The position numbers and the translations under genes were made by a program. Shown here one piece after another: positions 3,627 to 4,340 of a stretch of DNA of 5,604 nt. The DNA comes from a virus (lineage: Duplodnaviria; Heunggongvirae; Uroviricota; Caudoviricetes). The stretch is taken from the IMG/VR virus record IMGVR_UViG_2675903289_000011, one strand, 5' to 3'. The notes below the pieces were generated by a model. The model did not search any database. It was not told the origin of the DNA and saw nothing but the letters and a program-made list of their open reading frames with translations. The stretch's first letter is position 1. Every line of letters begins with the position of its first letter.

Positions 3627-4248
3627 TGGTTTTAACATTCTCGAAATGCTCTGAGAGTATATGTGTTAAGCCTTCTTCGGAATCTTTTGTGTTTGAAAAG
3701 ATGCCTTTCTGATTGTAAATGCGCATCAGTTTTTGACCGAAGCTATTGTGCACAACTCCATCGCCAAGAATTGTGGCTCCGTATAGAGTTCCATCATCAG
3801 TTAAGGCCTGCGCCGCATTGCGTATTACACAGCTTTTTGTAGATATATTTCCAGGCAGGCAGTGAAGAAGGTAAAACATGGAAATGGAATCAAATTGACC
3901 ATGTAACGCCGCGGGATAAGGTTCAAAAACATCATGGCTAATTTTATGTTTAATTTTTGATTCCCCAGCCCTTGTAGATGCCGCGTTCAGGCTAGCTTCG
4001 TTCAAATCCATTAAAGATATCAGACTACTCTCAGGTACGTGAGTAAGGTAAAACCCAGTTCCAACACCAATATCCAGATGGTTGTTACCTAAATGTTCCA
4101 GAAAGTGTGGAAGAAGGTGTTCCTTTGTAGGACATCCCCATGCAAGCCGATTTGATACTCCCAAAACCCACCAGTCATAAAGCTTTAGGGTAAGTGGTGT
4201 GTAAATTTTAGCCCCATCATCTGTGTTTGTTTTCATTGATTTCACCAT
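3627..4248 (-). CDS. Class I (Rossmann-fold) SAM-dependent methyltransferase, substrate unknown; 3' end runs into masked sequence
   Basis: Minus-strand ORF from ATG 4246-4248 (alternative ATG 4234-4236 with GGTG upstream). Translation MVKSMKTNTDDGAKIYTPLTLKLYDWWVLGV...HLDIGVGTGFYL...ISLMDLNEASL...FDSISMFYLLHCLP...THILSEHFENVKT. It has the SAM-binding motif I (LDIGVGTGF), an acidic residue ending beta-2 (MDLNEA) and a motif-IV-like strand. No DPPY/NPPY motif is visible, so a DNA amino-methyltransferase is not supported by the visible part. The region looks AT-richer than the fibre genes. Confidence 0.75.
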
Positions 4249-4276
4249 GTTATAGTTTTATTTGTGAATTAAATCA

Positions 4277-4305
4277 ATTATGGCGATGAATTACAAGGGG
4301 TTAAA
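4277..4305 (-). promoter_or_regulatory. Candidate sigma70 promoter for the methyltransferase gene (-35 TTTAAC, 17-bp spacer, -10 CATAAT, read on the minus strand)
   Basis: Hexamers read from the reverse complement of 4277-4305; located about 30-55 nt upstream of the ATG at 4248. Sequence-only prediction. Confidence 0.3.
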
Positions 4306-4319
4306 TGCTGCCGCAGCAT
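4305..4319. promoter_or_regulatory. Palindrome ATGCTGC-c-GCAGCAT abutting the candidate -35; possible operator or activator site
   Basis: Perfect 7-bp inverted repeat around a single central base, in the methyltransferase upstream region. Confidence 0.3.
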
Positions 4320-4340
4320 AGCGATATTGAAATAGCCTAG

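Follow-up and report, generated by a model that had tools for sequence, protein, structure and literature searches.

The locus and its neighbouring elements

The stretch of viral DNA analysed here (5,604 nucleotides, called the window throughout) carries tail-fibre and tail-fibre-assembly (tfa) genes, three masked runs of N and, on the minus strand, a gene with the features of an S-adenosylmethionine (SAM)-dependent methyltransferase. The features considered in this work are the following:

7–321, plus strand: C-terminal end of a tail-fibre gene (window ORF list)
323–850, plus strand: tail-fibre-assembly gene, PHROG 136, convergent with the next
879–1412, minus strand: tail-fibre-assembly gene, PHROG 136, convergent with the previous one
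From 1565 into the first N run, minus strand: alternative fibre C-terminus (window ORF list)
2037–2397, 2450–2890 and 2951–3626: three N runs, with two short islands between them
2398–2449, plus strand: right half of a gix/hix-type crossover site (ACCGAGGTTTTAGATAA, 2398–2414) and 5′ leader of the invertase, 100% identical to EC958 (L002) 7756–7807
2891–2950, plus strand: unmasked island with a third copy of the post-tfa hairpin (2893–2925), resembling S88 (L001) 13272–13311 and window 4589–4650
3580–3626, minus strand: masked last 15 codons (KVQGTVVMFSASGKK) and stop codon of the methyltransferase gene, as inferred from the 222-aa homologues and the EC958 and S88 loci
3627–4248, minus strand: methyltransferase ORF, ybcY family, 207 aa visible (ORF list and translation)
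4249–4277, minus strand: sigma-70 promoter motif of ybcY, TTGATT-17-TATAAC, exact match (chance expectation 0.01 matches per window)
4277–4304, minus strand: alternative promoter-like site TTAACC-16-CATAAT (consensus scan)
4305–4319: perfect 7+1+7 palindrome ATGCTGC-C-GCAGCAT, upstream of the promoter (read from the sequence)
4341–4574, plus strand: tfa 3′ fragment devoid of a start codon, the promoter-side flank of the methyltransferase cassette (translation)
4589–4622, plus strand: hairpin after the tfa fragment, one copy of the post-tfa stem-loop module (fold −16.4 kcal/mol)
4671–4949: decayed DUF4376 (fibre-related) fragment, after the 4589–4622 hairpin
4986–5558, minus strand: intact Rha-family regulator gene (window ORF list)

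The initial annotation covered positions 3627–4340, that is, the ORF, which extends from ATG 4248 to the edge of the N run (3627), together with the 92-nt spacer upstream of it. The AT-richness that it pointed out holds for the spacer (34% GC) and is marginal for the gene itself (41.2% GC, against 42.1–46.0% in the fibre and assembly genes). Likewise, the gene does lie on the minus strand, but fibre genes occur on either strand of the cassette, so that the description of the gene as opposite to them is correct only in part.

The left part of the window (7–2449; compare EC958, L002 4660–7778, and L101) is an invertible tail-fibre cassette similar to the G segment of phage Mu, with two convergent tfa genes, about 82% identical to Mu U/U′ and 87% identical to a Mu-like phage of Yersinia; of the gix-like sites, the window shows only the right one. 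In EC958, a 32-nt inverted repeat bounds a segment of 3055 nt. The closest copy of the cassette (93%), that of NCTC86, is inverted with respect to the methyltransferase gene, and the recombinase next to it is a remnant; thus, the segment was flipped either before the decay of the recombinase or in trans. As judged from the alignment with EC958, the ATG of the invertase would fall near position 2469, which belongs to the second N run rather than to the run that adjoins the methyltransferase gene, and the island 2891–2950 separates the two masks. An intact invertase extending across 2469–3050 was considered and rejected, as the stretch 2891–2950 consists of the post-tfa hairpin. No reading frame of this island appears to resemble a Gin/Pin-type invertase.

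The same 60-nt island is 100% identical to a prophage boundary lying, in other E. coli (L003, and L004 5001–5060), between the type III secretion effector gene ipaH3 and the chromosomal pphA, and also to stretches in 7 IMG/VR contigs. The hairpin module seems to mark the boundaries of cargo genes and late operons in several prophage types. At the other end of the region, EC958 has, beyond the DUF4376 and Rha genes, an ash-family gene followed by an ompW remnant adjoining trpA, from which it follows that this type of prophage sits in ompW.

The masked segment 2951–3626 was not recovered by megablast of the whole window, of the islands, or of a chimeric query joining both islands to the methyltransferase gene against 5426 complete E. 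coli genomes and phage records. Neither these searches nor exact and gapped pattern scans of IMG/VR and metagenome contigs returned a record matching the arrangement of the window; in the best relatives (ST131 strain EC958 and NCTC86) the interval from the crossover site to the methyltransferase gene is approximately 730 nt shorter. None of the 80 GTDB loci retrieved is the contig from which the window derives.

Identity and reading frame of the methyltransferase gene

The visible protein is 99% identical to a 222-aa sequence (P0002) that represents 6589 member sequences, and it matches the PHROG 2132 profile ("unknown function") over all of its positions (1–218 of 218) at E = 3.2e-156. In RefSeq, the members of the family are labelled "class I SAM-dependent methyltransferase" (e.g., WP_000240999.1). 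Based on these matches, the gene is identified as a copy of ybcY (b0562), which belongs to the cryptic prophage DLP12 of E. coli K-12. The locus had been proposed as the best candidate of the window for an undescribed system; instead, the family already has a K-12 gene name and a PHROG number and is annotated in thousands of genomes, so that, as a sequence feature, the window gene changes nothing.

Full-length homologues have 222 aa and end in ...KTKVQGTVVMFSASGKK, while the alignments with the EC958 and S88 loci reach window position 3627 and continue for 15 further codons. Together these observations place the stop codon near 3580. The 3′ end of the gene had been described as hidden, along with its neighbours, in the 676-nt N run. 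This is correct as regards the neighbourhood, 629 nt of which (2951–3579) lie behind the mask, whereas of the gene itself only the last 15 codons and the stop are concealed. Over its readable part the allele looks intact.

As to the start codon, M5 (ATG 4236) is invariant in an alignment of 39 sequences, and the four codons preceding it are degenerate or replaced by stop codons in other copies. Judging from this conservation, the true start is probably ATG 4236, giving a protein of 218 aa, and not ATG 4248. In RefSeq the homologous genes are annotated from the latter codon (222 aa), which the −10 hexamer of the published motif directly abuts.

Promoter motif and upstream spacer

The sequence TTGATT-17-TATAAC is listed for ybcY, in the ybcY/tfaX spacer of K-12, in a Genomic SELEX study with the RpoD holoenzyme, where the spacer also carries an H-NS flag (PMC3946193). 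From this flag we infer that the gene may be silenced under laboratory conditions; this reading is ours and not that of the cited study. The candidate promoter put forward by the initial annotation is thus borne out insofar as the published K-12 motif is present at 4277–4249. On the other hand, a generic consensus scan of the window yields no enrichment (2 promoters found, 2.5 expected from shuffled sequences). The upstream palindrome is perfect, as had been noticed; at this position the repeat search reported only an overlapping, weaker pair.

Methyltransferase class and predicted structure

The minus-strand ORF passes the gathering scores of four Pfam families, namely Methyltransf_12 (37.8, cutoff 30), Methyltransf_23 (29, cutoff 27), Methyltransf_25 (27.8, cutoff 27), and Methyltransf_11 (24.8, cutoff 21.2). 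The SAM-binding string LDIGVGTGF, recognized already from the letters alone, contains motif I (LDIGVGTG) at residues 58–65, whose D59, G61, G63, and G65 are invariant in 39 homologues. In addition, strand 2 ends in an acidic residue and the core shows the alternating beta/alpha fold; the AlphaFold (AF2) model has a pLDDT of 90.1. Profile scores and model concur in supporting the assignment of the protein to the class I (Rossmann-fold) SAM-dependent methyltransferases.

The absence of the DPPY/NPPY signature of DNA amino-methyltransferases, reported for the visible part, extends to the full 222-aa homologue: it has no (D/N/S)PP(Y/F/W) motif IV typical of the N6-adenine and N4-cytosine enzymes, the nearest string being EPYP. 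The PCQ and ENV motifs of the C5-cytosine enzymes are equally absent from this sequence, and no such enzyme occurs among its structural neighbours. The protein consists of a single 222-aa domain, with no target-recognition domain, and has a pI of 6.9.

The structural neighbours of the model include juvenile hormone acid methyltransferase (JHAMT), the bacterial phosphatidylethanolamine N-methyltransferase PmtA (8ys9), SgvM, BelI/CysG, NovO/CouO, DhpI, Coq5/UbiG, phosphoethanolamine methyltransferases and a few tRNA enzymes; no DNA methyltransferase is found among the top ones. Sequence and profile searches of the PDB gave JHAMT and UbiG as best matches, both weak. Small-molecule class I methyltransferases such as JHAMT, UbiG/Coq5 and PmtA have, like the YbcY model, a Rossmann-like core with N-terminal helices capping the active site, and they share the histidine after strand 4 (YLLHCLPG in YbcY), although identities are only 11–21% and TM-scores 0.53–0.67. 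Curated NCBIfam equivalogs (UbiE/Coq5, RquA, CpaM, and other small-molecule enzymes) scored at best 17.6 and 17.0 bits, far from their cutoffs of 180 and 175. No single family of small-molecule methyltransferases stands out and, consequently, a substrate cannot be transferred from any of them. Finally, no family of the PADLOC-DB 2.0 component models was matched at E ≤ 0.01. A small-molecule methyltransferase is what fits best with the sequence and the model; the fold, the sequence matches, the pI and the PADLOC result argue against DNA modification, and the DNA-modification or defence role considered initially finds no counterpart among these structural neighbours.

Prophage context and prevalence in E. 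coli

Near-identical DNA (95–99.7%) is present in 3837 of the 5426 complete E. coli genomes (about 70%), in up to 4 copies per genome and almost always on the chromosome; in 3800 of these 3837 carriers the match covers at least 80% of the query. In the DLP12 prophage of K-12 the order is tfaD-ybcY-tfaX, upstream of appY and ompT, and ybcY is a pseudogene. The gene is intact and encodes 222 aa in S88, EC958, NCTC86 and the lambda-like phages ev243 and PhiR26_1, with an arrangement consisting of tfa, the hairpin, ybcY on the opposite strand and a tfa fragment. This arrangement is complete in all related loci; in the window, the promoter-side tfa fragment (4341–4574) and its hairpin are present while the 3′ side is masked. 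The stretch equivalent to 4341–4574 is annotated as a partial tfa in EC958, S88, ev243 and PhiR26_1 and as tfaX in K-12. On the 3′ side, a copy of the hairpin lies 5–45 nt beyond the methyltransferase stop codon in all 13 prophage-type copies checked. The EC958 hairpin is strong (−26.3 kcal/mol, z = −3.8) and is followed by a T-run on the strand of the late operon; late transcription is therefore probably terminated there.

The initial annotation attached importance to the position next to an invertase, by analogy with mom of phage Mu and mcrA of e14. This link does not withstand comparison across genomes: a query joining the invertase remnant to the methyltransferase gene is covered to at least 80% in only 410 of the 3982 matching genomes (about 10%), the "recombinase" of EC958 and NCTC86 is a 180-nt remnant fused to a tfa fragment, and in the plaque-forming lambda-like phages ev243 and PhiR26_1 the gene lies between tfa and the hydrolase/ompT/int region, with no invertase. 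The constant companions of the gene are the duplicated tfa 3′ ends and the stem-loop, not the invertase.

Two copies occur in S88 (L001, 7954–8622 and 13312–13980), roughly 5 kb apart and each with an ompT paralogue downstream. One of them is also accompanied by a gene for a 494-aa alpha/beta hydrolase, and this trio of methyltransferase, hydrolase and ompT recurs in ev243 and PhiR26_1.

Across very different prophages the coding sequence is nearly uniform, with 2–11 differences in 654 nt. Such uniformity would result if the direct repeats of the tfa ends allow transfer of the cassette by homologous recombination.

Selection and intactness

The dN/dS ratio is 0.08–0.10, both when the window and other E. 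coli prophage copies are compared with Citrobacter and when the two S88 copies are compared with each other. The family alignment has 56 invariant columns, which comprise the SAM-binding residues and a striking YNxKGIFSNxxD segment. These substitution patterns show that the gene is kept intact under purifying selection. One E. coli copy from GTDB has no start codon. In K-12, deletion of ybcY gave no phenotype in the one assay that we found (PMC2408971). Our literature search found no functional study of ybcY: it appears in gene lists, in a promoter table, as a landmark on the ompT side and in this negative deletion result.

Relatives outside E. coli prophages

Relatives are encoded in 266 stretches from GTDB species representatives. 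At 50–68% identity they occur in Enterobacter, Klebsiella, Salmonella, Yersinia, Erwinia, Pantoea, Proteus, Pasteurellaceae, Pseudomonas, Dyella, Xanthomonas and Noviherbaspirillum. A search of 1.84 billion representatives of 50%-identity clusters gave 418 clusters at E ≤ 1e-30, nearly all of 210–240 aa, and the longer members show no informative domain fusion; one eukaryotic fusion to RCC1 probably stems from an erroneous gene model.

In Enterobacter hormaechei, Salmonella and Erwinia amylovora the orthologue is solitary in an ordinary chromosome, with neighbours that differ between genera. The comparison of gene neighbourhoods proposed at the outset was carried out by clustering all ORFs within 4 kb at 55 loci from more than 20 genera, and no neighbour other than the methyltransferase itself is shared across genera. 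Variants of 89–90% identity are found on a plasmid-like contig of Salmonella (L105) with CcdA/CcdB, KfrA and a resolvase-type integrase, and in an island of Citrobacter freundii near purB/mnmA (L102) with dinI and a CdiI-type immunity gene. The methyltransferase gene thus moves on more than phages and, considering also the unshared neighbours, would be a mobile, self-sufficient unit with no partner. Indeed, the partner gene that had been suspected behind the mask has no equivalent at any related locus, be it prophage, plasmid or chromosome. The initial annotation would have given way to a well-characterised housekeeping family in a conserved chromosomal context; what we find in other genera is a solitary chromosomal gene with no partner, although the family is not a well-characterised one.

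In several Citrobacter and Enterobacter loci (L026, L029, L037 and L040), the orthologue adjoins two ORFs identified by eye as dcp and ydfG. In E. coli K-12, the surroundings of dcp-ydfG are where the Qin prophage is located. A lambdoid phage could thus have acquired the gene by imprecise excision from a chromosomal copy beside dcp-ydfG.

In Pseudomonas (L060–L062, L066 and others), a co-oriented ORF of 229 aa, which by eye looks like a crotonase/enoyl-CoA hydratase, follows the orthologue in 6 of 7 loci, and in 4 of those a CorA-like ORF (again by eye) comes next. This may be plain synteny of close species or a weak functional hint. In addition, two short contigs in metagenome-assembled genomes labelled Bacillus sp. 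and Planococcaceae (L021 and L030) are 99% identical to the E. coli prophage methyltransferase region and are very likely bin contamination.

A probable solitary small-molecule methyltransferase carried as prophage cargo

The explanation that we favour, and consider probable, is that ybcY is a moron-type cargo gene between duplicated tfa ends which is transcribed in the lysogen from its own promoter and encodes a solitary, SAM-dependent methyltransferase of small molecules. YbcY would be a single-domain class I enzyme of 218–222 aa, and its gene a moron with transcription of its own, placed where the late (tail-fibre) region of lambda-like prophages ends. Its transcription would start from its own sigma-70 promoter and run against the late operon. 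The two direct copies of the tfa 3′ end, with the stem-loop, that bracket the gene could provide homologous flanks for exchange between prophages. In the lysogen, the substrate is most likely a low-molecular-weight compound (for instance a metabolite, a lipid head-group, or a xenobiotic or toxin) and probably not DNA. The enzyme would act alone, with neither a partner protein nor a functional link to the neighbouring inversion switch. The prophage-cargo reading of the initial annotation is therefore retained, in the form of a solitary ybcY with its own promoter in lambda-like prophages.

Among other possible activities, methylation of nucleic acids has to be considered, either of DNA (anti-restriction or epigenetic) or of rRNA/tRNA (e.g., antibiotic resistance or translation tuning). 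In its favour are the analogy of position with Mu mom and e14 mcrA, both next to an invertase, to which the initial annotation pointed, and the mobility of the gene across prophages, a plasmid and islands, which recalls that of resistance genes. Nevertheless, with no DPPY/NPPY or PCQ-type catalytic motif, neither a target-recognition nor an RNA-binding module in its single 222-aa domain, a pI of 6.9, top structural neighbours that include no DNA methyltransferase, no PADLOC match, and invertase adjacency in only about 10% of the carrier genomes, we regard such an activity as unlikely. Constant embedding of the gene among tfa sequences could instead point to a protein methyltransferase that modifies either a host protein or one of the phage, such as the tail fibre or its chaperone. 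The orthologues of 50–68% identity are chromosomal, however, with no phage genes nearby, so that the substrate cannot be phage-specific; moreover, the gene is transcribed against the late operon from its own promoter, and we give this possibility a slighter chance than nucleic-acid methylation.

The 629 unreadable nucleotides at the 3′ end leave room for an ORF of about 200 aa, and hence for YbcY being one half of a two-gene defence or anti-defence system whose partner is hidden in the 676-nt N run. Such a system is very improbable: in the 13 prophage-type copies the tfa-type hairpin follows the stop within 45 nt with no co-oriented ORF after it, no neighbour is conserved across genera, PADLOC gave no match, and every comparable locus has a tfa fragment plus hairpin at the equivalent position. 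With a copy of one and the same hairpin module on either side, the masked stretch would fit another tfa or fibre fragment rather than a partner gene. It could also be argued that the gene is a functionless passenger hitch-hiking with recombining tfa segments, considering that the K-12 copy is a pseudogene, that one GTDB copy has lost its start codon, that the K-12 ybcY/tfaX spacer is flagged for H-NS (PMC3946193) and that no phenotype has been reported. Against this stand a dN/dS of about 0.09, at least 80% query coverage in 3800 of 3837 carrier genomes, 6589 member sequences of the 222-aa form and conservation of the family across Gammaproteobacteria, which make a mere passenger rather unlikely.

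Returning to the small-molecule methyltransferase, a bolder version, for which we see only a small chance, is that YbcY is a lysogenic-conversion enzyme. It would methylate one specific small molecule that matters when phage and host, or bacteria among themselves, compete, and would thereby inactivate this molecule or change it; the head-group of a membrane lipid, an immune signal derived from a nucleotide, and an antimicrobial or toxin are candidates. If true, this role would account for the presence in about 70% of E. coli of a strongly conserved, mobile orphan enzyme that prophages, plasmids and islands have spread. In any case, ybcY ranks among the most widespread cargo genes of E. coli prophages; the purifying selection on it is clear, and it passes between phages, plasmids and chromosomes.

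Comparison with known systems

The nearest known system is ybcY of DLP12 in K-12, which belongs to the same family (about 99% identity to intact alleles) and has the same layout (tfa, ybcY on the opposite strand, tfa fragment) and the same promoter motif. The K-12 gene is a pseudogene, whereas the readable part of the window allele looks intact; furthermore, unlike K-12 ybcY, the window cassette adjoins a Mu G-like invertible fibre segment, a minority arrangement (about 10%).

With mom of Mu and mcrA of e14, the window and the ST131 and NCTC86 prophage type share the position beside an invertase gene at the prophage end. Sequence and fold are unrelated, and the adjacency of ybcY to an invertase is not conserved. 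Mom is not known to be a SAM methyltransferase; McrA belongs to the nucleases.

Another parallel is offered by the morons and b-region cargo genes of lambda-type phages (lom, bor, ompT and the like). Like ybcY, these are extra genes dispensable for phage growth, have their own promoter, and lie at the end of the late region against the late operon. In ev243 and PhiR26_1, ybcY adjoins lom, hydrolase and ompT cargo. The products of the lambda-type morons are envelope proteins, whereas YbcY is predicted to be a cytoplasmic enzyme.
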